From positions 1 through 41,464 of the forward strand of contig JAEEHY010000290.1 of the NCBI GenBank assembly GCA_016281085.1: a stretch of DNA of 41,464 nt. The letters are read 5' to 3'. This DNA comes from Lachnospiraceae bacterium (GTDB lineage: Bacteria; Bacillota; Clostridia; Lachnospirales; Lachnospiraceae). A program made the position numbers and the translations under genes. The number at the start of each line of letters is the position of its first letter. The first letter of the stretch is position 1. Positions 8,943 through 31,620 of this stretch are shown here, in pieces. The notes under the pieces were generated by a model. The model did not search any database and was not told the origin of the DNA. It saw only the letters and a program-made list of their open reading frames with translations.

Positions 8943-10019
8943 ATGGATATTTCAGAAATTAAAATACCGGAAATAAACAAAGACCTGTACAACAGGATCA
9001 GAGAAGGATGGGACAGCGTAGCCAAGCCGCTTGACAGCCTTGGAGAGTTGGAAGCCATAATTGCAAAAATAGGCTCAATAAACGGAACGGTTACACCGGA
9101 TATTTCCAAAAGGGCCCTGATCATCATGTGTGCCGACAACGGCATAGTTAATGAAGGAATAAGCCAGTCGGGCCAGGATGTTACACGCAGTGTTGCAGGA
9201 TGGATGGGTAAGAGGAAAAGCTCTGTCTGTGTTATGGCAGAGAATTCGGGTGTGGATATAATTCCGGTAGATATTGGCATAAACATGGAAGGCACCCCTG
9301 ATGGAGTGCTTGACAGGAAGATACGAAAAGGTACAGGAAATTTCATAAAAGAGCCTGCGATGACCATGGAAGAGCTTGACAGGGCGATCCATACCGGTAT
9401 GGAGCTTGTCAGGGAATGCAGGGAACGGGGATATAAGATACTGGCGACCGGTGAGATGGGAATAGGGAATACGACGACATCTGCGGCAGTATGCGCGGCT
9501 GTTCTCAAATTGTGTGCAGAGGATGTTACCGGACGCGGAGCCGGACTGTGTGATGAAGGTCTTGTACGTAAGGTGGCTGTCATAAAGAACGGAATAGATA
9601 AATACGGTCTGAATGATATCAATCTCAATGTGGAAGGTGAAGCCGGAATAAAGCGTATCATGAGTACGGTAGGCGGCCTTGATATAGCGGGTCTGACGGG
9701 TGTATTTGTGGGCGGTGCCGTATATGGTATTCCGGTTATCATAGACGGCTTTATAAGTGCCGTGGCGGCACTGTGTGCGCAGAGGATATTGCCGGGGGCT
9801 TCACAGTACATGATATGCTCCCATATCGGCAGAGAACCGGGTATGCGTATCGTGCTTGATGAGTTGGGACTTAAACCGGTCATATGTGCGGATCTTGCGC
9901 TTGGAGAGGGTACGGGCGCGATAATGATGTTCCCTCTTCTTGATATGGCATTAAGGCTTTATACGAACGGACTCAGATTCCGTGATACAGAGGTTGAGCA
10001 GTATAAACACTTAATATAA
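8943..10019 (+). CDS. cobT: Nicotinate-nucleotide--dimethylbenzimidazole phosphoribosyltransferase
   Basis: 358 aa with KPLDSLGELE near the N-terminus and the GEMGIGNTTTSAA motif. No recognisable RBS upstream. Confidence 0.9.
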   Translation: MDISEIKIPEINKDLYNRIREGWDSVAKPLDSLGELEAIIAKIGSINGTVTPDISKRALIIMCADNGIVNEGISQSGQDVTRSVAGWMGKRKSSVCVMAENSGVDIIPVDIGINMEGTPDGVLDRKIRKGTGNFIKEPAMTMEELDRAIHTGMELVRECRERGYKILATGEMGIGNTTTSAAVCAAVLKLCAEDVTGRGAGLCDEGLVRKVAVIKNGIDKYGLNDINLNVEGEAGIKRIMSTVGGLDIAGLTGVFVGGAVYGIPVIIDGFISAVAALCAQRILPGASQYMICSHIGREPGMRIVLDELGLKPVICADLALGEGTGAIMMFPLLDMALRLYTNGLRFRDTEVEQYKHLI

Positions 10020-10024
10020 AGCTA

Positions 10025-10054
10025 TTGATTAAAGCAACGTATATGTTTTATAAT
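10025..10054 (+). promoter_or_regulatory. Putative promoter for the orphan 355-aa gene
   Basis: TTGATT, 18 nt, TATAAT, about 50 nt upstream of the ATG at 10104. Confidence 0.4.
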
Positions 10055-10103
10055 TAAAAGCGGTATGATTAAGTGGCATTATTAAAATGCAAGGGGAAAG
10101 CTG

Positions 10104-11171
10104 ATGCTGAACATAGTTGATGCAGGAATGATGAATCTTCCTGTTTTTATAAGAAGATATACCGACTCGAAGGAGTTTGCGGATATGATCCATGGTTATC
10201 GCGAGATAACCGGAGGATATAACTATGCAATAGAGAACCTTACAGAGCTTCCGGTAGACGAAAGATACGCCCGCGTCAGTGATGTAATAGTTACAAGAAA
10301 GAAAGCAATGTATACCTCCTACAGAACACAGGAGGTCTGTCCGGTTACGCTTAATGCATATCTTGTTGATTTCAACAATTACGTAGTGGTCATGTCCACC
10401 GATGCTTCCCATATATACGGCAAGAGAGTTATGAAGGCCGGTTTTAAATCCACGGAATTTGAGCCGATAGGAGTACTTGGGAAGAAGAAGGTGCATGTAT
10501 ATCTTGCGACCAGGTATTATCAGGGGATACTTCCCAAGATCGGATCGGATATAGCGAGGTTTAAGGATGACAGGAAGAAGAAATGCACAGGCTCAAGAGG
10601 TGAAGTGACCTATGATATCAAGCCGGAGCTCATGAAGGCCATGCTTGAATATGATAAGAAGAGGGGTGCCAACAGTCTTAAGTCATGCATAATTCTGACA
10701 TTTGGTAAGATCGTCTGCGGACTTGTTTCGAGAGAAGCCATAATAATAAAGACAAGGCATGAAGGCGGGTTACTCCGCTGGGTACCGATGATCTTCAACA
10801 ATGATGATGATTACAGTGTGCAGTTTACCGATATCAAAGACGTTTATGAGAAGGCTGAGGTATATGACAGCTGCAGTGTTGATATACTTAACAGTGAATT
10901 AAGATACGATTGTGAGGAGTATTCAACACTGTCTTATGAATTTCTTACACAGAATACATATAACGATTTCCTGCGTCAGGTTGAACCGAATAAGACCTAT
11001 TTCATAGATTCCTACGGACATGAGAAAGCACCTGTGGCTGTAAGGCTTGAGATCACAGATACTTCCATGCAGATCACCTATTCGTATGATACGGGTTATC
11101 TTGAAGGAGTTGATATCGGGAAGGTTCATGAGATGTTTCTTGTCTTGATCACCCGTGTCGTTAACACGTAA
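10104..11171 (+). CDS. Hypothetical protein; no domain recognised
   Basis: 355-aa ORF with an AAGGGGA RBS, no transmembrane segment or signal peptide, and ordinary-looking codon usage. I recognise no conserved motif. Confidence 0.6.
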   Translation: MLNIVDAGMMNLPVFIRRYTDSKEFADMIHGYREITGGYNYAIENLTELPVDERYARVSDVIVTRKKAMYTSYRTQEVCPVTLNAYLVDFNNYVVVMSTDASHIYGKRVMKAGFKSTEFEPIGVLGKKKVHVYLATRYYQGILPKIGSDIARFKDDRKKKCTGSRGEVTYDIKPELMKAMLEYDKKRGANSLKSCIILTFGKIVCGLVSREAIIIKTRHEGGLLRWVPMIFNNDDDYSVQFTDIKDVYEKAEVYDSCSVDILNSELRYDCEEYSTLSYEFLTQNTYNDFLRQVEPNKTYFIDSYGHEKAPVAVRLEITDTSMQITYSYDTGYLEGVDIGKVHEMFLVLITRVVNT

Positions 11172-11197
11172 TCTTAGCTTAAGGAGTCCGGAAGTCA

Positions 11198-14100
11198 TCA
11201 GACATCGGACTCCTTATCGCTTATATCGTCAATATCATCAATCGAATCATAATCCCTGTTACCGCTGTGACTGTTTGCAGCGGTTTTCTTTCTGCGTCTC
11301 CTGTTTTTCGCGGAAATGACTGCTATGATCACAATGACTGCAATTATGATAAGAGCAGCTGCTTCATATCCTGCGTATCTGACCAAAGGGTTGACATAGG
11401 TATTCTCGACCATGAATCTTACATCCAGGCCTTGTGTATTAAAGGTCAGATATCTGCCCATGGGAGTGGTTTCGGCTATTTCCATGTCATTACCGTTTAA
11501 AAGCCAGATCCGGACATCCGATGGATTTACACCGGCCGGAGGTGCATAACGGACCAGATGCTCATTACGTACATCATCAGGAATCTCAAGTGTCCATGTC
11601 TCTATAACATTTTCTTCTGTACTGATCCCGCTGACAGTGGATTTGAAATAGTCTCCTTCAATAAATCTTCCGTCTACAAGAACAGCCGACTGTATGTTGT
11701 CACGAAGCTGCATACTTCCCAGGGTTGTTATATATCTGGCTGTTTTTCCTATAAGCTCCGAATCGCTTCTTATATCATTGAGATTTGAATTTTCCCAATC
11801 CCATGAAATGTACTCGCCTTCAGAGATTTCCACCGGAAGTGTTGAGACGGAGGAATCATACTCATAATCTTTTACGGCTATCGGTTTATCATCCAGAACG
11901 AATCTGACCTTAATGGAGCGGAATTCGGAGGGGATATTATCCATGGCAAGAAGTTCGCTGTATGTCACCGGTTCGGCCTTACCGCTGTAGCTTACCCTGT
12001 CGATCCCGGCCTGATCATCCGATACGAAATAATTGTTTTTGATCCTTCCGGTGTTACTGTTATCACCTGCTATGGCACCGAGAAAGCTTTCGGAACTTAC
12101 TATTGTGGGAAGAGAAATACATCCGCTTATGTCATAACCCTTGCCGGCAATACCTCCGATATAGCTGTCTCCCACAAGTATTCCCTTGGTATAGCAATCC
12201 ATTATGGTTGAAAGGGATTCACCTGAAATACCTCCGATATAATCTCCCGAATTGCTCTTCAGCTTGCCGTAATTGTGGCATGAAAGGATGGTTCCCATTT
12301 CCTGAAAACCGCATATGCCGCCTACATGATCCTTTACGCCTTCGACATAACCTTCGTTTTTATCATTTCTCATTACACATTTAGTACGGTAGGTTGTTCC
12401 GGCCGCTGCGTCTTTTATACCTGTGATATCACTTTCAAGGTCAAAGTCGTATTCGATCGCCATTGTTCCGGCAATACCCGATGAGTTGATGTCACCGTAG
12501 ATGCTTCCGTAGTTTATTGAATCTGCAATGGTGGCATCTGTGCAGTCCCTGGCAACGGATACGGAAGTATCTTCATAGACATCCGTGTAATCCTGATCGA
12601 GGACACCGTCGATCGCATCTGCAATCAGGATCATTATGACGTTAAACTGGTCGTTGACCTTGACCATATCATCAATAAGCTGCTGATTGGATGAATTCAT
12701 TTCGTTATTGAGGAGTCCCAGACTGTCGCTCATTCCCTGTATGTTGGCGATCAGACTGCCGGATCTGGCCTGATATTCATCAGATAACCTTGGAAGCGTT
12801 ATTGCCGGCCGGGAGCTCAGATCGGACACTATATCTTTTGTGGCAGATACAGTTCCACCCAAATCCCTTATGGATCGTTTGGTGTGATCTATTGCATATC
12901 GTATATCCCTGCCTGTTGCCTCGCCCATATCGTCTGCATGGGCAATAATATAGCCGGACATATCCTCTACATTGTCAGCTTCGTAATCAAAGAAGCTGGT
13001 ACCGTATTTCTTTTCAAAGTCTTCGTCGGAAATACGTGATATAGCGGCATCTGCAGAACCCTCTGCAGACAGATCCAGTAACTTGTCCTCTTCTCTGTAT
13101 GCTTCATCTGATGAAGGGAAGTCGGTATAAGCGGGAGGCTCGGTACTGCTGTCTTTGTGTGCAAGTCTTGCAACGTTATCATATTCTGAATTGTTTCCTG
13201 ATACAGTATCTGAAAATACGGTTTTTTTGTCGGGCCAGGGTATTTCCCTTCCGTCCCCGTCAAGCAGCACAAGATTGGAACTTGTGGGCCTGTTGCTGTT
13301 TATATATCCGTAATAATAATCCTTATAATACTTATTTTCATTTTCGTCATGGAATTTGCTGTAATCATCTGAGGCCTGTTTGATATTATCCTTTGCCTTG
13401 TTGTAGCTTACCTCTTCCTCCTCTGAAAAATATTTGTGGATATCAAGGTCATCGACAGCATTAACAAGATCGTCCGCAGCACTTGAAATCTCGGTGATCG
13501 AAGACTTTGCCTTATCAAATGCACCTCCGCTTTTGGTCGATTCATTCATTGCATATTCGACACGGCTTAACACTTCATCGCCTTTTTCAGCAATACTGTT
13601 GATATAATTCTCGGTTTCAGTTGACAGATAAGAGGTATCATTAAGTGCCTTGTCGGTAAAACTCTTTACCATATTTAAACGTGCGGTTACAAGATTGGAC
13701 TCACTTCCGGCGTCATTCAGGGTTACATTTACCAGATCATGAAGAGTGTTCATATTGGATGTGAGCTGTCCGACAATGTCCTCGGTTATATCTATAACGA
13801 CATAGGGTTCAGCCTGACCGGCTATTCCGCCAACGTCCTTACGCCCATATATTTCACCGTTGTTTACGCACATGTCAATGAAGCCGTTCTGCCGTCCGGC
13901 TATGCCTCCGATGTTGTAGCCGACATGTTCGTAGCCTACGAGGGAATTGTTTGTACAGCATGTAATGATACCGTGGGAATAGCCGCAGATACCGCCTACA
14001 TCGACAGTGCTGTTAAGTACACTTGTATAGTCCTTTTTGGTGTTGGGGTCAAACAGGTTAAGAATGTTGTTTGAGAATTTATCTATATCAAAATTCTGTA

Positions 14101-26711: not shown

Positions 26712-26986
26712 TGTTATCAGGCAAAGAAGTAATATCACAGCTTGGGGATGCTTATAAAGTTTCTATAATATATTCATGGAAATTTTTGATCATCCCTTGA
26801 AATACAAAACAGTTTATGTTAACATAATATCGTTGATGGAACGATCGACCGATGATTCGTCCTGGTGGGAAAAGGATTGGACGATGAGATCTTTGGTGAA
26901 GTCACAGACAATTTAATATTTCAATACACATTTGCACGAAGGGAAAAGGATGAGCAAATAATGATTGATCTTTATTATGGATCCAT

Positions 26987-27028
26987 ATCCTCATTCTTTT
27001 TGTATATGCAAATTGAATGAGGATTTTT
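26987..27028 (+). promoter_or_regulatory. Terminator-like hairpin with a U-tract immediately upstream of the hddA RBS (candidate attenuator)
   Basis: atcctcattc / gaatgaggat gives a perfect 10-bp stem with an 18-nt loop, followed by ttttt. AGGAGG follows 6 nt later. Confidence 0.4.
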
Positions 27029-27044
27029 GATTTAGGAGGTTAAT

Positions 27045-28019
27045 ATGATAGTAGCACGCAGCCCGCTCAGGATATCGCTCGGAGGAGGAGGTACCGATCT
27101 TCCTTCATATTATCAGCAGAGAGAAGGATTTCTTATTTCCGCAGCAATTGATAAATACGTATACATTACCCTGCATGAGACTTTTGATAAGGGATATTTC
27201 CTTAAATACTCCAAGTTTGAGCATGTTCAGGAGATTGATGAGATACAGCATCCGATAATCAGGGAAGCGCTTAAGATGCTTAACTGGAACGAGAATCATA
27301 TTGAGATCTGTTCCATGGCAGATATCCCTGCAGGGACAGGCCTTGGTTCATCAAGCAGCTTCACAACAGCGCTTCTTCGTGCTCTTCATACAATGCAGGG
27401 GAATATAGTGAGCACACGTACACTTGCCGAGGAAGCCTGTGAGATAGAGATGAACCGTCTCAAAGAACCCATAGGAAAACAGGATCAGTACATAGCTGCA
27501 TATGGCGGTATCACCTGCATGAATTTTCATAAGGACGGATACGTATGGGTCGATCCGCTCAATATTTCGAAAGAAACCCTGTACAATCTTGAAGACAATC
27601 TCATTCTTTACTTTACCGGGTTTTCGCGTTCGGCGGGAAGCATCCTTAAGGAGCAGGATGATAAGAGCAGGGATAAGAATTCTGATATGCTGAAAAACCT
27701 TGATTTCGTTAAGGATCTCGGTTATCAGAGTAAAAAGGCATTTGAGGCAGGAGATCTTGACGCATTTGCCGACATCATGAATGTACATTGGGAATATAAG
27801 AAGAAACGCTCCGGCGGTATGAGTAATCCTCAGATAGATGAGTGGTATGACATGGCACTTAAGAACGGTGCCAAGGGAGGCAAGATGATAGGTGCCGGCG
27901 GCGGCGGCTTCCTGATGTTCTACTGCGAGGACAAGAGAAGGCTTCGCGAAGCCATGAAGGATACGGGAATGGAAGAGGTAAGGTTCCGCTTTGAAATGGA
28001 AGGCTCAAGGGTACTGTAA
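27045..28019 (+). CDS. hddA: GHMP-family sugar kinase, D-glycero-alpha-D-manno-heptose 7-phosphate kinase type
   Basis: 324 aa with RSPLRISLGGGGTDLPSYY at the N-terminus and the GHMP motif PAGTGLGSSSS. AGGAGG RBS. Confidence 0.85.
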   Translation: MIVARSPLRISLGGGGTDLPSYYQQREGFLISAAIDKYVYITLHETFDKGYFLKYSKFEHVQEIDEIQHPIIREALKMLNWNENHIEICSMADIPAGTGLGSSSSFTTALLRALHTMQGNIVSTRTLAEEACEIEMNRLKEPIGKQDQYIAAYGGITCMNFHKDGYVWVDPLNISKETLYNLEDNLILYFTGFSRSAGSILKEQDDKSRDKNSDMLKNLDFVKDLGYQSKKAFEAGDLDAFADIMNVHWEYKKKRSGGMSNPQIDEWYDMALKNGAKGGKMIGAGGGGFLMFYCEDKRRLREAMKDTGMEEVRFRFEMEGSRVL

Positions 28020-28021
28020 TT

Positions 28022-29458
28022 ATGATGAACGCTGAAGAAGTAAGGTTCAAAAGTCCGGAGGATATGCAGGTTGTAGTCCTGATGGGAGGCCTGGGTACAA
28101 GGCTTAAGGAATTTACCAGGGAGTGTCCGAAGCCTTTGGTTGATGTTGAAGGACGACCGTTCTTTGATTACTCGCTTAAGCTGCTCATGCATCACGGATT
28201 CAGGAAGTTCCTTTTTCTTATCGGCTACCGTGCGGAGATGATCGAGGAATACTACGGTGACGGCAGCAGGCTGGGGATATCGATAACCTACTGTTATGAC
28301 GGTAAGGAACTTCTGGGAACAGGCGGGGCTGTTAAACGAGCGTATGATCATCTTGAGGATGATTTTCTTCTGATGTACGGTGACTCATTCATGGATATTG
28401 ATTATGAGGAAACACTGTACAGATATTTTGAGGGCAGATTACGTGGGATGCGGGCTCTTATGACCGTTCTTAAGAACGGTAACCGTTTTGATAAGTCAAA
28501 CGTGATCATGGACGGTACGGAAATAAAGCTGTACAACAAAAAGGATATCTCTCCCGGAATGGATTATATAGACTACGGAGTGTGCGTTTATGAGAAGAGC
28601 CTCTTTTCGGATGACTACATAAACGGACTGCTCGGCCGGGAAGGTGAAGCGGATAATGACCCTGATAATAAAACCGGTACTTTGACATCGGACAGTGATC
28701 AGTCGGGCAATGCAGATCATCAGAATGTAAAGTTTGATATAGCAGTACTTCAGAACAGACTCAGCATTGATAAACAGATTGCAGCACATATAGTTACGAA
28801 ACGTTTCTATGAAATAGGAAGTCCGACTGCTTTAAATGAATTCAGGAACTATGTGAAGCACAGATTTAATGAAAAACATCCGGCGGTCTTTCTTGACAGG
28901 GATGGTGTTCTTAACGAGATCGTATTCAATGATGATATCGAGCAGATGGATTCCCCGCAGAAGCTGTCACAGTTTAAGGCTTTTCCGGAAGCGGCGGATG
29001 CAATAAAGGCATTCAGGGATAAGGGTTACTACATATTTATAGTGACCAATCAGCCCGGAGCGGCCAAGGGCAAATCACAGCTTAAGACACTGTATGATAT
29101 AAATACGATGTTTATCGAACAGCTGAGTGAGCAGGGAGCAGAGGTTGACGGTGTTTATATGTGCCCGCATTATCCGAAGATGTGTGAGCATACAAAGGAG
29201 AAGTTTCTTATTAAGAAATGCGACTGCAGGAAACCGAAGCCGGGACTTCTGTTTAAGCCGAAGGATATCTACAATATCGATTATGACAATTCATATATGA
29301 TCGGTGATTCGTTTACGGATATAGTTGCGGGAAATGCTGCGGGAGTTAAGACGGTGTTCATAGGAGAACTGAAATGCGATGCCTGCAAGAGGCTGTGTGA
29401 TGTCGAGCCGGATCATATAGTGCATAATGTTTCCGAGGCAGCAAAGATCGTGTTGTGA
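28022..29458 (+). CDS. Bifunctional sugar-1-phosphate guanylyltransferase (HddC-like) / heptose 1,7-bisphosphate phosphatase (GmhB-like) fusion
   Basis: The N-terminal half has LMGGLGTRLK...PKPLV nucleotidyltransferase motifs. The C-terminal half has HAD motifs FLDRDGVLN, VTNQPG, CDCRKPKPG and GDSFTDIVAG. The start lies 2 nt after the hddA stop. Confidence 0.85.
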   Translation: MMNAEEVRFKSPEDMQVVVLMGGLGTRLKEFTRECPKPLVDVEGRPFFDYSLKLLMHHGFRKFLFLIGYRAEMIEEYYGDGSRLGISITYCYDGKELLGTGGAVKRAYDHLEDDFLLMYGDSFMDIDYEETLYRYFEGRLRGMRALMTVLKNGNRFDKSNVIMDGTEIKLYNKKDISPGMDYIDYGVCVYEKSLFSDDYINGLLGREGEADNDPDNKTGTLTSDSDQSGNADHQNVKFDIAVLQNRLSIDKQIAAHIVTKRFYEIGSPTALNEFRNYVKHRFNEKHPAVFLDRDGVLNEIVFNDDIEQMDSPQKLSQFKAFPEAADAIKAFRDKGYYIFIVTNQPGAAKGKSQLKTLYDINTMFIEQLSEQGAEVDGVYMCPHYPKMCEHTKEKFLIKKCDCRKPKPGLLFKPKDIYNIDYDNSYMIGDSFTDIVAGNAAGVKTVFIGELKCDACKRLCDVEPDHIVHNVSEAAKIVL

Positions 29459-29562
29459 AAACTGAGAACCATCATAAAGGATCCGCAGCCTTATGACATT
29501 CGTGATAACGAATGCATACCGCAAGCGGTATCCCTTATGACAAATAAAAAGGAGGGTATAAA

Positions 29563-30120
29563 ATGAGTACAGACTACATTGACAGGTATATGGAGGAGAC
29601 AATGCAGATTGTCAATACCATAGACAGGAATGAAATTGCAAAGGGGATTGATATTCTTAAGAAGCTGAGGGACGAAGGCGGCCGACTGTTTATCCTTGGC
29701 GTAGGAGGAAGTGCAGCCAATGCATCGCATGCGGTGAATGATTTCCGCAAGATAGGCGGTATAGAAACTTATGCTCCGACAGACAATGTTTCCGAGCTTA
29801 CGGCACGCACCAATGACGAAGGATGGGAAACGACATTTGCGGAATGGCTTAAGACATCCAGAGTAAACGACAAAGACTGCATTATGGTATTTTCGGTAGG
29901 CGGAGGATCGGAGACAACCAGTCTCAATATTGTAAATGCACTTAAGCTTTCCAAGGAGAGAGGGGCAAAGGTTATCTCCATCGTATCAAGAACCGGCGGC
30001 TATTCGAAGCAGGTCAGTGATGCATGTGTCCTTATTCCGGTGGTAAGTGAGGAGAGGATCACACCCCATGCCGAAGGGTGGCAGGGAGTCGTATGGCATC
30101 TGATGGTCAATGCACTATAA
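29563..30120 (+). CDS. gmhA: SIS-domain phosphoheptose isomerase
   Basis: 185 aa with GVGGSAANASHAVNDF and SVGGGS SIS motifs. AAGGAGGG RBS. Confidence 0.85.
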   Translation: MSTDYIDRYMEETMQIVNTIDRNEIAKGIDILKKLRDEGGRLFILGVGGSAANASHAVNDFRKIGGIETYAPTDNVSELTARTNDEGWETTFAEWLKTSRVNDKDCIMVFSVGGGSETTSLNIVNALKLSKERGAKVISIVSRTGGYSKQVSDACVLIPVVSEERITPHAEGWQGVVWHLMVNAL

Positions 30121-30152
30121 TAAGTGCGAAGCACGGAACAATCCGTATTATA

Positions 30153-30180
30153 TTGATGTATGATGTATGATGTATATAAT
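30153..30180 (+). promoter_or_regulatory. Possible internal promoter embedded in a 3x GATGTAT heptamer repeat
   Basis: TTGATG, 16 nt, TATAAT, about 40 nt upstream of the transaldolase ATG. Confidence 0.35.
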
Positions 30181-30218
30181 AAAACCTCGAGGGGTAATAG
30201 ACAGAAGGGAGTATAGGT

Positions 30219-30938
30219 ATGAAGTTTGAAGATCTTAAGGTAACAGTGTATGCGGACGGGGCAGATATCGAAGCAATGAAGGAAGAGTACAGGAAGGGAT
30301 ATGTTAAGGGGTTTACGACCAATCCCACGCTTATGAAGAAGGCCGGAGTTAAGGATTACGTTACATTCGCAAAGGAAGCGGTAAAAGAGATCCCCGATCT
30401 TCCTTTATCATTTGAAGTGTTTGCTGATGATTTTGATACAATGGAAAAGGAAGCGGAATACATTTCTTCCCTTGGAAATAATGTGTACGTTAAAATACCG
30501 ATCACCAATTCCAAAGGAGAATCGAGTGTTCCTCTTATTAAAAAGCTTTCGTCAAAAGGAATTAAGATAAATGCAACTGCAATACTGACTCTTGAGCAGG
30601 TTCGCTCGGTGGTGGATGCATTTGCCGAAGGTACCGAAAACATAGTTTCCGTATTTGCGGGAAGGATATTGGATACCGGTGTGGATGCTGTGCCTGTAAT
30701 GAAAGAGGTTACCGAAATATGCAAGGCAAAACCCGGTACACTGTCCCTGTGGGCCAGCTGTCGCGAACTGTATAATATAATCCAGGCAGACCAGTGCGGT
30801 ACTGATATAATAACCGTAACCAACAACATCCTTGCCAAGCTTCCGAACCTTGGAAAGGATCTTACACAGCTGTCCCTGGAAACAGTTCAGATGTTTGTGA
30901 ATGACGGAAAGAGTCTCGGATATTCCATTTTAAAATAA
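30219..30938 (+). CDS. Transaldolase-family protein (short TalC/FSA-like class)
   Basis: 239 aa with the GFTTNPTL motif and a Schiff-base lysine context (NVYVKIPIT). AGGGAG RBS. Confidence 0.8.
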   Translation: MKFEDLKVTVYADGADIEAMKEEYRKGYVKGFTTNPTLMKKAGVKDYVTFAKEAVKEIPDLPLSFEVFADDFDTMEKEAEYISSLGNNVYVKIPITNSKGESSVPLIKKLSSKGIKINATAILTLEQVRSVVDAFAEGTENIVSVFAGRILDTGVDAVPVMKEVTEICKAKPGTLSLWASCRELYNIIQADQCGTDIITVTNNILAKLPNLGKDLTQLSLETVQMFVNDGKSLGYSILK

Positions 30939-31044: not shown

Positions 31045-31072
31045 TTGACAAATAAAAAAAAAACGCTATAAT
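31045..31072 (+). promoter_or_regulatory. Consensus sigma-A promoter (TTGACA, 16 nt, TATAAT) with flanking A-tracts
   Basis: Both hexamers match the consensus exactly, the surrounding sequence is A-rich, and it lies about 80 nt upstream of the Lys/Ala-rich protein gene. Confidence 0.65.
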
Positions 31073-31151
31073 ACTGTATATCGTATACAAATTGTTTTAT
31101 TTTACAATAGTTATAAATATTTTTGCGGTGAGAAGTGGAAAGGAGATTGAC

Positions 31152-31556
31152 ATGGCAGAAGTTAAGAAACCTGTAGCAGTTGCTAAGAAAGCTGACGAAG
31201 TTAAGACTGATGCAGTTGAAGCTAAGGTAGAAGCAGCAGCAAAGAAGGCTACAGCAGCTAAGAAGACAGCAGTAAAGAAGGCAGCAGCTCCCAAGAAGGC
31301 AGCAACAGCTAAGGCAGCAGCTCCCAAGAAAGCAGCAGCTCCCAAGAAGGCAGCAGCTCCTAAGAAAGCAGCAGCAGCTAAGGCAGCTGATGTAGTTATC
31401 AAGATCGAGTTCAACGGACAGCAGGTAGATCTCAATGATCTGAAGGCACGTGTAGCTAAAGAGGCAGGTAATGATGCAGTAGCATACTACAACGTTAACG
31501 AAGGAAAGGTATATTGCACAGTTAACGGAGAGCCTAAGGGAGATTTCGAGGTTTAA
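31152..31556 (+). CDS. Small basic protein: histone-H1-like AAAPKK repeats plus a roughly 55-aa C-terminal globular domain
   Basis: AAGGAG lies 6 nt before the ATG at 31152; the ORF-track start at 31092 has no RBS. The sequence MAEVKKPVAVAKK...(AAAPKK)n... is followed by VVIKIEFNGQQVDLNDLKARV...VYCTVNGEPKGDFEV. Confidence 0.75.
   Translation: MAEVKKPVAVAKKADEVKTDAVEAKVEAAAKKATAAKKTAVKKAAAPKKAATAKAAAPKKAAAPKKAAAPKKAAAAKAADVVIKIEFNGQQVDLNDLKARVAKEAGNDAVAYYNVNEGKVYCTVNGEPKGDFEV
31281..31382 (+). repeat. In-frame tandem 18-bp (and 15-bp variant) coding repeats encoding AAAPKK / AATAK
   Basis: gcagcagctcccaagaa(g/a) occurs at 31281, 31314, 31332 and 31350 (the last with one change, cct for ccc), with gcagca(a/g)cagctaag variants between and after. 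Confidence 0.9.
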
Positions 31557-31583
31557 TCCCTGAATAGTATATAAGTAAAGATT

Positions 31584-31620
31584 GCAGCATCGGTTGGGAT
31601 GACCGGTGCTGTTTTTTTGT
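31584..31620 (+). terminator. Rho-independent terminator after the Lys/Ala-rich protein gene
   Basis: gcagcatcggt-tgggatg-accggtgctg stem (one G-U pair) followed by tttttttgttttttt. Confidence 0.8.

Follow-up and report, generated by a model that had tools for sequence, protein, structure and literature searches.

What does a gene cluster make that looks like a heptose operon and yet carries a transaldolase of its own? The question is raised by a stretch of 41,464 nucleotides (nt) from a Lachnospiraceae bacterium (contig JAEEHY010000290.1 of assembly GCA_016281085.1; this whole stretch is "the window" below), in which four open reading frames (ORFs) stand head to tail on the plus strand between positions 27045 and 30938. 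The host is an uncultured rumen Lachnospiraceae with an 88%-complete assembly, and the nearest contigs in public data come from rumen metagenome-assembled genomes (MAGs). An initial annotation, made from the sequence alone and with coordinates that agree with ours, had described these genes as a guanosine diphosphate (GDP)-heptose-type cassette of five activities with a dedicated transaldolase, matching the enzyme set that builds the GDP-octose of the lincosamide antibiotics. We think that the four genes very likely form a single operon for a transaldolase-primed, non-canonical GDP-sugar pathway, here called type A, whose product is probably a GDP-activated higher-carbon sugar for the cell envelope, made from central sugar phosphates. 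The features in question are the following.

26712..27044, plus strand: operon leader, with a weak promoter-like site at 26797-26825 and a hairpin plus T-run directly before the ribosome-binding site (sequence reading)
27045..28019, plus strand: HddA-like GHMP sugar-1-kinase, 324 amino acids (Pfam GHMP_kinases_N and GHMP_kinases_C; NF049969)
28022..29458, plus strand: fusion of an HddC-like nucleotidyltransferase with a GmhB-like HAD-IIIA phosphatase, 478 amino acids (NTP_transferase, HAD_2, Hydrolase_like)
29563..30120, plus strand: type A SIS isomerase, GmhA-like, 185 amino acids (SIS_2; H56, D60, R82, E171, Q174, H179)
30121..30218, plus strand: gmhA-tal spacer with three GATGTAT repeats (sequence reading; variable)
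30219..30938, plus strand: short TIGR02134-type transaldolase, 239 amino acids (TAL_FSA, TIGR02134)

The domain, family and motif assignments of the four ORFs thus agree with the five activities predicted at the outset. The isomerase is where the family name misleads.

A distinct type of isomerase

The isomerase had been called GmhA-type, a label that does not survive inspection of the catalytic and metal residues by which GmhA is defined. Its closest solved relatives in a search of the PDB are GmhA structures, at only E 5e-11, and with the GmhA model TIGR00441 it scores 52.9 bits, below the canonical threshold of 209.45. We mapped the cassette isomerases of four phyla onto the GmhA proteins of Burkholderia pseudomallei and Campylobacter jejuni and onto canonical copies from two Micrarchaeota loci. 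In B. pseudomallei numbering, the active-site and zinc set of GmhA presumably consists of His64, Glu68, Gln175 and His183, with Glu176 and His178 in addition. Throughout the four phyla His64 and His183 are kept, and Glu68 is replaced by Asp, Gln175 by Glu, Glu176 by Gly or Ala, His178 by Gln and Ile95 by Arg; the phosphate loop, STSG in GmhA, reads SVGGG and has an insertion. The window's protein shows H56, D60, E171 and H179, together with G172 and Q174, a set different from that of canonical GmhA, and the type A signature is invariant in 80 of 80 metagenome homologues. Judged by these residues, the cassette isomerase is a distinct type and not a canonical GmhA; since the catalytic and metal residues differ, its product is probably not the D-glycero-D-manno sugar.

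This type is widespread: its members fall into more than 8000 clusters when grouped at 90% identity and, with E <= 1e-30, into 561 when grouped at 50%. In a profile search over 1.84 billion representatives, the fused proteins inspected among the best 150 comprise SIS-GmhB, GmhB-SIS, HddC-SIS and other HAD fusions, and none of them joins the SIS domain to a carrier-protein domain or to a transaldolase.

No second GmhA-like gene was found in the window's genome. Elsewhere in the genus, six species (G026, G014, G020, G013, G002 and G001) have in exopolysaccharide loci (L127-L132) a paralogous cassette of hddA, an hddC/gmhB fusion and gmhA, the isomerase of which has the canonical GmhA residues in five of the six loci, the copy of G020 being an Asp68/Glu175 variant; none of these paralogous cassettes contains a transaldolase. 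One Micrarchaeota locus has a canonical gmhA and a gmhB adjoining a complete type A cassette. That type A and canonical isomerases coexist in one locus or one genome indicates that the two types are not redundant.

A third variant (Asp68, Glu175, Asp176) is present in G020 (L129) and in G016 (L133), two species without a transaldolase. It is only 29-31% identical to type A, does not share the Val55, Arg95 and Gln178 positions, and lies in G016 in a locus that reads epimerase, hddC, gmhB, isomerase and a WecG/TagA-type transferase. An Asp/Glu signature is therefore accompanied by a transaldolase in part of the cases, not in all.

The transaldolase belongs to the cassette

The initial annotation took the transaldolase to be dedicated to this cassette, and conserved linkage, co-loss and association with this isomerase type all uphold that view. 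The order hddA, fusion, SIS, tal recurs in all 29 loci fetched from other species of the genus (the fusion protein itself is found in 34 of 36 other species), in mouse-gut Lachnospiraceae and, with unfused genes, in Candidatus Tepidiaquacella (Ignavibacteriota) and in one MAG each of Eremiobacterota and Micrarchaeota (L107), a recurrence that argues against a chance arrangement. Cultured mouse-gut isolates with the cassette include 1XD8-76, A24_16.AM.DSS and B36_36_MI_H. Two species of the genus, G016 and G020 (91-92% complete), have neither the cassette nor any transaldolase match at E <= 1e-20, and in the 34 cassette-bearing species the transaldolase is exactly the cassette copy. In this genus tal thus follows the cassette in gain and loss and is no housekeeping gene.

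The association was then measured from two sides. A metagenome scan seeded on the type A isomerase gave 80 loci, 52 of them informative (transaldolase shown, or at least 1.7 kb on both sides), and a transaldolase is adjacent in 48 of the 52. The neutral control was a search of 401 genomes of the phylum with the HddA model, in which all 21 other hits were inspected with some 9 kb of flank to either side, or as much as the contig offered: none of the 21 loci has any transaldolase and none has a type A isomerase, whereas nine have a canonical-type gmhA. Fisher's exact test between the isomerase-seeded and the kinase-seeded loci gives p of about 1e-8 to 1e-14, the latter for 48 of 52 against 0 of 21. 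In seven of the type A metagenome loci the transaldolase is of a second subfamily (26-38% identity) which keeps the Glu/Phe transaldolase set, and the activity has thus been recruited beside this isomerase at least twice.

Linkage of transaldolase and isomerase extends over at least six phyla plus archaea. Type A hosts include rumen and gut Lachnospiraceae, soil and peat metagenomes, Rhizobium, Lawsonia, Ignavibacteriota, Eremiobacterota and Micrarchaeota, and the commonest order in metagenomes is Gfo/Idh/MocA, hddA, hddC, SIS, gmhB, tal. The whole module lies on a plasmid in Lawsonia intracellularis and on a chromid in Rhizobium jaguaris CCGE525, where it reads GtrB-like GT2, GtrA, epimerase, nucleotide-sugar dehydrogenase, SDR, Gfo/Idh/MocA, hddA, hddC, SIS, gmhB, tal. 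Rhizobium sp. CB3060 is a further host of the complete module. A mouse-gut Lachnospiraceae isolate (L071, 9518-15259) has three CotH-kinase-family genes and a GT52-like gene after the cassette.

A candidate promoter at 30153, which would have let tal be transcribed independently, had also been put forward, and the evidence goes against it. The gap between SIS and tal measures 98 nt here and ranges from about 15 to 130 nt elsewhere; in many species it is only about 15-25 nt, which leaves no room for a separate promoter. Metatranscriptome contigs from two bovine runs (X25 and X27) cross the gap, although they are short and of low depth and DNA carry-over is possible, and promoter-like sites are no commoner in the region than in shuffled sequence (14 against 12.0 +/- 3.1). 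The spacer, whose sequence is not conserved, is probably not an independent promoter. It contains three exact GATGTAT units at 30152-30172; the X25 contig has one 7-nt unit fewer, so that the number of repeats varies between strains.

At the other end of the operon, the promoter-like site in the leader has 9 of 12 matches in the promoter scan, and a metatranscriptome contig covers 27008-27172, that is, the end of the leader and the start of hddA. In sister species the 3' part of the leader, some 200 nt (26857-27044), separates the epimerase gene from hddA and is 71-78% conserved; it may be a regulatory element. A riboswitch was considered for the 333-nt leader and dropped, no Rfam family matching it.

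A transaldolase of ordinary appearance

The transaldolase passes its family model TIGR02134 with 377.2 bits against a cut-off of 281.95, and D13, E66, K92, N118, T120, F146, R149, S180 and R182 align with the full catalytic set of the Thermoplasma acidophilum transaldolase 3S0C. Fructose-6-phosphate aldolases have a Gln and a Tyr at the diagnostic positions; here the catalytic Glu is kept and position 146 is Phe. The window's tal is the only true transaldolase found in this genome. Its other TAL_FSA gene (contig C119, 1495-2175) has the Gln/Tyr pair of the fructose-6-phosphate aldolases and lies between a glycyl-radical enzyme and a ROK kinase, a neighbourhood that may be an operon for the breakdown of sugars.

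In a tree of 81 TIGR02134-type members, linkage to the cassette is clustered without being monophyletic: five changes of state are most parsimonious, and well-supported branches make at least two unavoidable. The unlinked copies of rumen Treponema (L075-L098) form a clade that groups with the linked rumen Lachnospiraceae copies with 96% support, which suggests transfer between rumen phyla; other unlinked members stand by themselves or belong to phosphotransferase system (PTS) sugar operons in Lactiplantibacillus and Bacillaceae. The forced changes and the nested Treponema copies rule out the idea that the linked transaldolases are a specialised clade. By its sequence this looks like a general transaldolase, one that speaks neither for the formation of an octulose nor for its exclusion. 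The initial annotation had held that a transaldolase which groups with the ordinary enzymes and behaves as one would refute an octose product. The transaldolase does group within the ordinary TIGR02134 family, with unlinked members nested among the linked ones, but the octose is not thereby refuted, because ordinary transaldolases can make octulose-8-phosphate from ribose-5-phosphate together with fructose-6-phosphate (PMC5854111).

The kinase and the fusion protein

The best NCBIfam match of the kinase is HddA (NF049969), over the full length with E 5.5e-51, at 174 bits against a cut-off of 600; canonical loci in the same phylum reach 256-504 bits with this model. The motif PAGTGLGSSSS occupies residues 95-105, and identity within the genus is 79-99%.

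The fusion ORF starts 2 nt after the kinase stop. It has an HddC-like half (about 15-280, with NTP_transferase at 15-197) and a GmhB-like HAD-IIIA phosphatase half (about 285-478, with the HAD-IIIA/GmhB-like match at 285-448), and nucleotidyltransferase and phosphatase are encoded by separate genes in other phyla. An acidic low-complexity insert at about 205-235, inside the nucleotidyltransferase part, is variable or missing in relatives, whose fusion proteins align in two pieces with the insert skipped. The nucleotidyltransferase part has GGLGTRL at 22-28 and scores 91 bits with the HddC model (NF049965) against a cut-off of 300, a score that several other sugar-1-phosphate nucleotidyltransferase models equal; GDP as the nucleotide (GTP specificity) is suggested by the partner epimerase alone, as predicted from its sequence (see below). 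The phosphatase part has FLDRDG at 290-295, a CPH motif and the zinc loop CDCRKPKPG at 400-408; it is above the cut-offs of TIGR01656 and TIGR01662 and reaches 125.8 with the GmhB model PRK08942, against 178. The HddC-GmhB fusion is known in two deeply diverged forms, 28-32% identical, one being the cassette copy and the other the copy in exopolysaccharide loci.

One may ask at this point if the locus is not simply an ordinary GDP-D-glycero-alpha-D-manno-heptose operon beside which a housekeeping transaldolase happens to lie. The best family names are indeed HddA, HddC, GmhB and gmhA, and the pathway known from Aneurinibacillus thermoaerophilus, C. jejuni and B. pseudomallei uses the same four families with the same chemical logic; moreover, TIGR02134 is a general transaldolase family with members in PTS operons or alone in other taxa, and this genome, as far as it is assembled, has no other true transaldolase. 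However, with each of the four heptose equivalog models the score stays far under the cut-off, and the isomerase has His/Asp/Glu/His where GmhA has His/Glu/Gln/His, with Gln for His178. The cassette also differs from the known pathway in its fused HddC-GmhB, in its regular GDP-sugar 4-epimerase partner and in its hard-wired transaldolase, absent from all 21 kinase-seeded control loci. The linkage recurs in at least six phyla and in archaea, those species of the genus that lack the cassette are devoid of any transaldolase, and in five species canonical cassettes coexist with the type A one. We consider this reading highly improbable.

Partner genes and delivery of the sugar

In most species of the genus two genes stand 5' of hddA, one for a membrane protein with a degenerate GGDEF domain and then one for an SDR; in one subclade a GT2 takes the place of the membrane protein. 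In the window's genome these two partner genes are found on another contig (C225, 18-2108), where they are preceded by rapZ, whiA and a cyclophilin gene and where the SDR gene stops 17 nt short of the contig's end; in the closest relative (G030) partner genes and cassette are likewise apart. The membrane protein of C225 has 358 amino acids, with SEGSF in place of GGDEF.

The best PDB matches of the SDR are the Archaeoglobus protein 3EHE (E 2.4e-87, 296 bits) and the Pyrococcus enzyme PhGal4E_1, 8RDG (1.3e-76, 261 bits), and the next GalE-annotated structure outside their subgroup, 4ZRM, follows at 136 bits. By similarity the SDR is thus a predicted member of the GDP-sugar 4-epimerase subgroup of PhGal4E_1, whose solved members (8RDG, 3EHE and Pyrobaculum 3AW9) are its best solved relatives. 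The 3EHE/8RDG subgroup of 4-epimerases prefers GDP-sugars and is without a known natural pathway (PMC12171764); the linkage described here suggests GDP-heptose or GDP-octose as its substrate.

The GT2 of the sister species matches PgfS and ArnC over the full length, which marks it as a polyprenyl-phosphate glycosyltransferase. GT2 proteins of this kind belong to the GtrA/GtrB and PgfS/ArnC lipid-carrier systems; the Rhizobium GT2 also matches PgfS/ArnC, and a GtrA-like protein is added there. Unlike those systems, the window has no GT2, and a search of the rest of the genome for an orthologue of the sister-species enzyme turned up only paralogues that are 30-34% identical. It had been stated that the consumer of the activated sugar is encoded elsewhere. 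This holds for the window, where the ORFs checked, from about 17.6 to 36.7 kb, include no recognised glycosyltransferase, but the usual partners are at hand on C225 of the same genome, and the sister species have the PgfS/ArnC-type GT2 in the operon itself.

In other lineages the module lies in typical glycan loci, among genes for GT2, GtrA, an initiating transferase and AglJ-like proteins; in Tepidiaquacella an initiating transferase gene and further GT2 genes follow 3' of tal. Such neighbours make it most likely that the product is a surface sugar delivered via a lipid carrier. They also speak against something quite different, namely a soluble nucleotide-heptose-like metabolite that works outside glycans, or a C9 sugar made with a hexose-phosphate acceptor. 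A product of that kind would agree with the lack of a glycosyltransferase in the window, with the degenerate-GGDEF membrane protein, not a GT2, that heads the operon in most of the genus, and with a nucleotide specificity that is predicted only; on balance we regard it as unlikely.

Heptose or octose

Two products remain to be weighed. The one that we tentatively put first is a GDP-heptose (C7) of non-canonical type made from sedoheptulose-7-phosphate (S7P). In the steps that follow, substrates, stereochemistry, nucleotide and acceptor are predictions from the gene content, motifs, conservation, linkage and co-loss described above. The transaldolase would convert fructose-6-phosphate and erythrose-4-phosphate into S7P, as a private supply, and the type A isomerase would turn S7P into an aldoheptose-7-phosphate, with D-glycero-D-gluco as a natural candidate for its stereochemistry. 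The HddA-like kinase would then phosphorylate C1, the GmhB-like domain would take off the distal phosphate and the HddC-like domain would form the GDP-sugar. The GDP-sugar 4-epimerase (on C225 here, operon-linked in sister species) would invert C4, which on a gluco substrate would give GDP-D-glycero-D-galacto-heptose, and a GT2 of the PgfS/ArnC/GtrB type would load the sugar onto polyprenyl phosphate so that it can be transferred outside the membrane. D-glycero-D-galacto-heptose is known from Eubacterium saburreum, a member of the Lachnospiraceae, and in Thermoplasma (PMC11407970).

Several observations favour a heptose. A precedent exists in hygromycin B biosynthesis, where HygP, a GmhA homologue, converts S7P to D-glycero-D-altro-heptose-7-phosphate, a non-manno heptose which feeds ordinary downstream enzymes (PMC10948575); HygP works in an ADP-heptose route without a linked transaldolase, and we liken the two by role, not by sequence. 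One Micrarchaeota locus has the same type of transaldolase directly beside a GmhA with the canonical signature and heptose-type enzymes. In another, that of the L107 MAG (a genome of 1.1 Mb), a split transketolase, its N and C halves encoded by separate genes (9638-11447), adjoins the cassette. This favours S7P because a transketolase is needed to make erythrose-4-phosphate, and hence S7P, from scratch, and is not needed for octulose. (The window's genome has its own split transketolase twice, on contigs C140 and C141.) Finally, we know of no linear octose reported in any microbial glycan, bacterial or archaeal.

Other facts weigh against the heptose. S7P is a pool metabolite for which a private transaldolase should be needless, yet it is retained; the canonical-GmhA cassettes of the same genus do without one, G020 has a paralogous heptose-type cassette and no transaldolase in its genome, and the score in the kinase-seeded loci of the phylum is 0 of 21. 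Four cassette-bearing genomes (Tepidiaquacella, an Ignavibacteriae MAG, an Eremiobacterota MAG and a mouse-gut isolate) keep a separate true transaldolase beyond the cassette copy, and a second transaldolase family has been recruited beside the same isomerase type in seven loci. Taken together, this retention and recruitment fit a substrate that cannot be drawn from the general metabolite pool. In addition, the gluco-then-galacto stereochemistry suggested above is drawn purely by analogy.

Such a substrate would be provided by a GDP-octose route like that of the lincosamides. Here the transaldolase would move the C3 unit of fructose-6-phosphate (or S7P) onto ribose-5-phosphate to give octulose-8-phosphate, the isomerase would act like LmbN to give octose-8-phosphate, and a kinase, a phosphatase and a guanylyltransferase like LmbP, LmbK and LmbO, followed by an LmbM-like 4-epimerase, would complete a GDP-octose for an envelope glycan and not for an antibiotic. 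The roles of the Lmb enzymes are those described for the lincosamide pathway (PMC4351081, PMC12945683). The first step is feasible for an ordinary transaldolase, as noted above.

The match with the lincosamide enzyme set, claimed from the start, is real at the level of families and goes further than was claimed. All five Lmb core enzyme families are encoded by one operon here, as they are encoded together in the module for GDP-D-erythro-alpha-D-gluco-octose of Streptomyces lincolnensis and S. caelestis. Beyond the core, that module has LmbM, LmbL and LmbZ/CcbZ, and the wider type A module likewise includes an SDR epimerase, joined in other phyla by a Gfo/Idh/MocA oxidoreductase, which we take to be of the LmbL/LmbZ family; seven of the eight lincosamide sugar enzyme families are covered in this way. 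An octose would also make sense of the tie between tal and the type A isomerase and not canonical GmhA (48 of 52 against 0 of 21), of cassette copies kept alongside housekeeping transaldolases, of the convergent recruitment of a second family to the same position, and of the coexistence of canonical and type A isomerases. Yet the cassette lies in a core or glycan context and not in an antibiotic cluster, with no LmbS-type aminotransferase seen; its isomerase has no carrier-protein domain, and a lincosamide synthetase is lacking. The isomerase family is very common although, to our knowledge, linear octoses are missing from bacterial and archaeal glycans; the transaldolase looks ordinary, with unlinked rumen Treponema relatives nested among the linked copies; and the two Micrarchaeota loci link tal to a canonical-signature GmhA in one case and to a transketolase in the other. 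We take the octose to be a serious possibility, without adopting it.

Surroundings of the cassette

The flanks are of the housekeeping kind and are as the initial annotation described them, with RlmD upstream and a basic protein and HrcA downstream. Upstream lie genes for MutS2, a two-component pair, SpoU, an HtrA-like protein, YhaM and RlmD, and downstream a gene for a small Lys/Ala-rich protein is followed by HrcA-GrpE-DnaK-DnaJ. The gene of the Lys/Ala-repeat protein has its ATG at 31152; the region 31045-31612 also provides it with a promoter-like site that is a perfect TTGACA/TATAAT and with a strong hairpin resembling a terminator, and the protein matches no Pfam family. Metatranscriptome contig depth is the highest of the stretch over this gene, repeats of related organisms contributing to it.

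Conclusions

Outside the work on lincosamides, full-text searches of the literature turned up no paper that connects a transaldolase to hddA, to gmhA or to genes for GDP-heptose. What this locus adds is a cassette that is a near-universal core operon of a rumen genus, gained and lost there in step with tal; the contrast with transaldolase-free canonical cassettes of the same genus and with a clean kinase-seeded control; an invariant residue signature for the isomerase; and a connection with the GDP-sugar 4-epimerase subgroup. The family of type A isomerases stands for a very common pathway of many bacterial phyla and of tiny archaea that is uncharacterised, and the annotations gmhA, hddA, gmhB and hddC that such genes carry probably name the wrong product.

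The cassette could, at a tentative estimate, be the primary-metabolism counterpart of the lincomycin sugar pathway, making a GDP-activated linear octose from ribose-5-phosphate together with fructose-6-phosphate to decorate the envelopes of a near-ubiquitous rumen Lachnospiraceae genus, soil bacteria, Rhizobium, Lawsonia and DPANN archaea. If so, octoses would be common and overlooked parts of microbial surfaces, a class known only from an antibiotic would become a general component of envelopes, and the sugar pathway of the lincosamides would have been recruited from this old module. If the product is instead a non-manno heptose, a route to orphan sugars such as D-glycero-D-galacto-heptose would have been found. 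With either product, the GDP-sugar 4-epimerase subgroup gains a candidate natural substrate.

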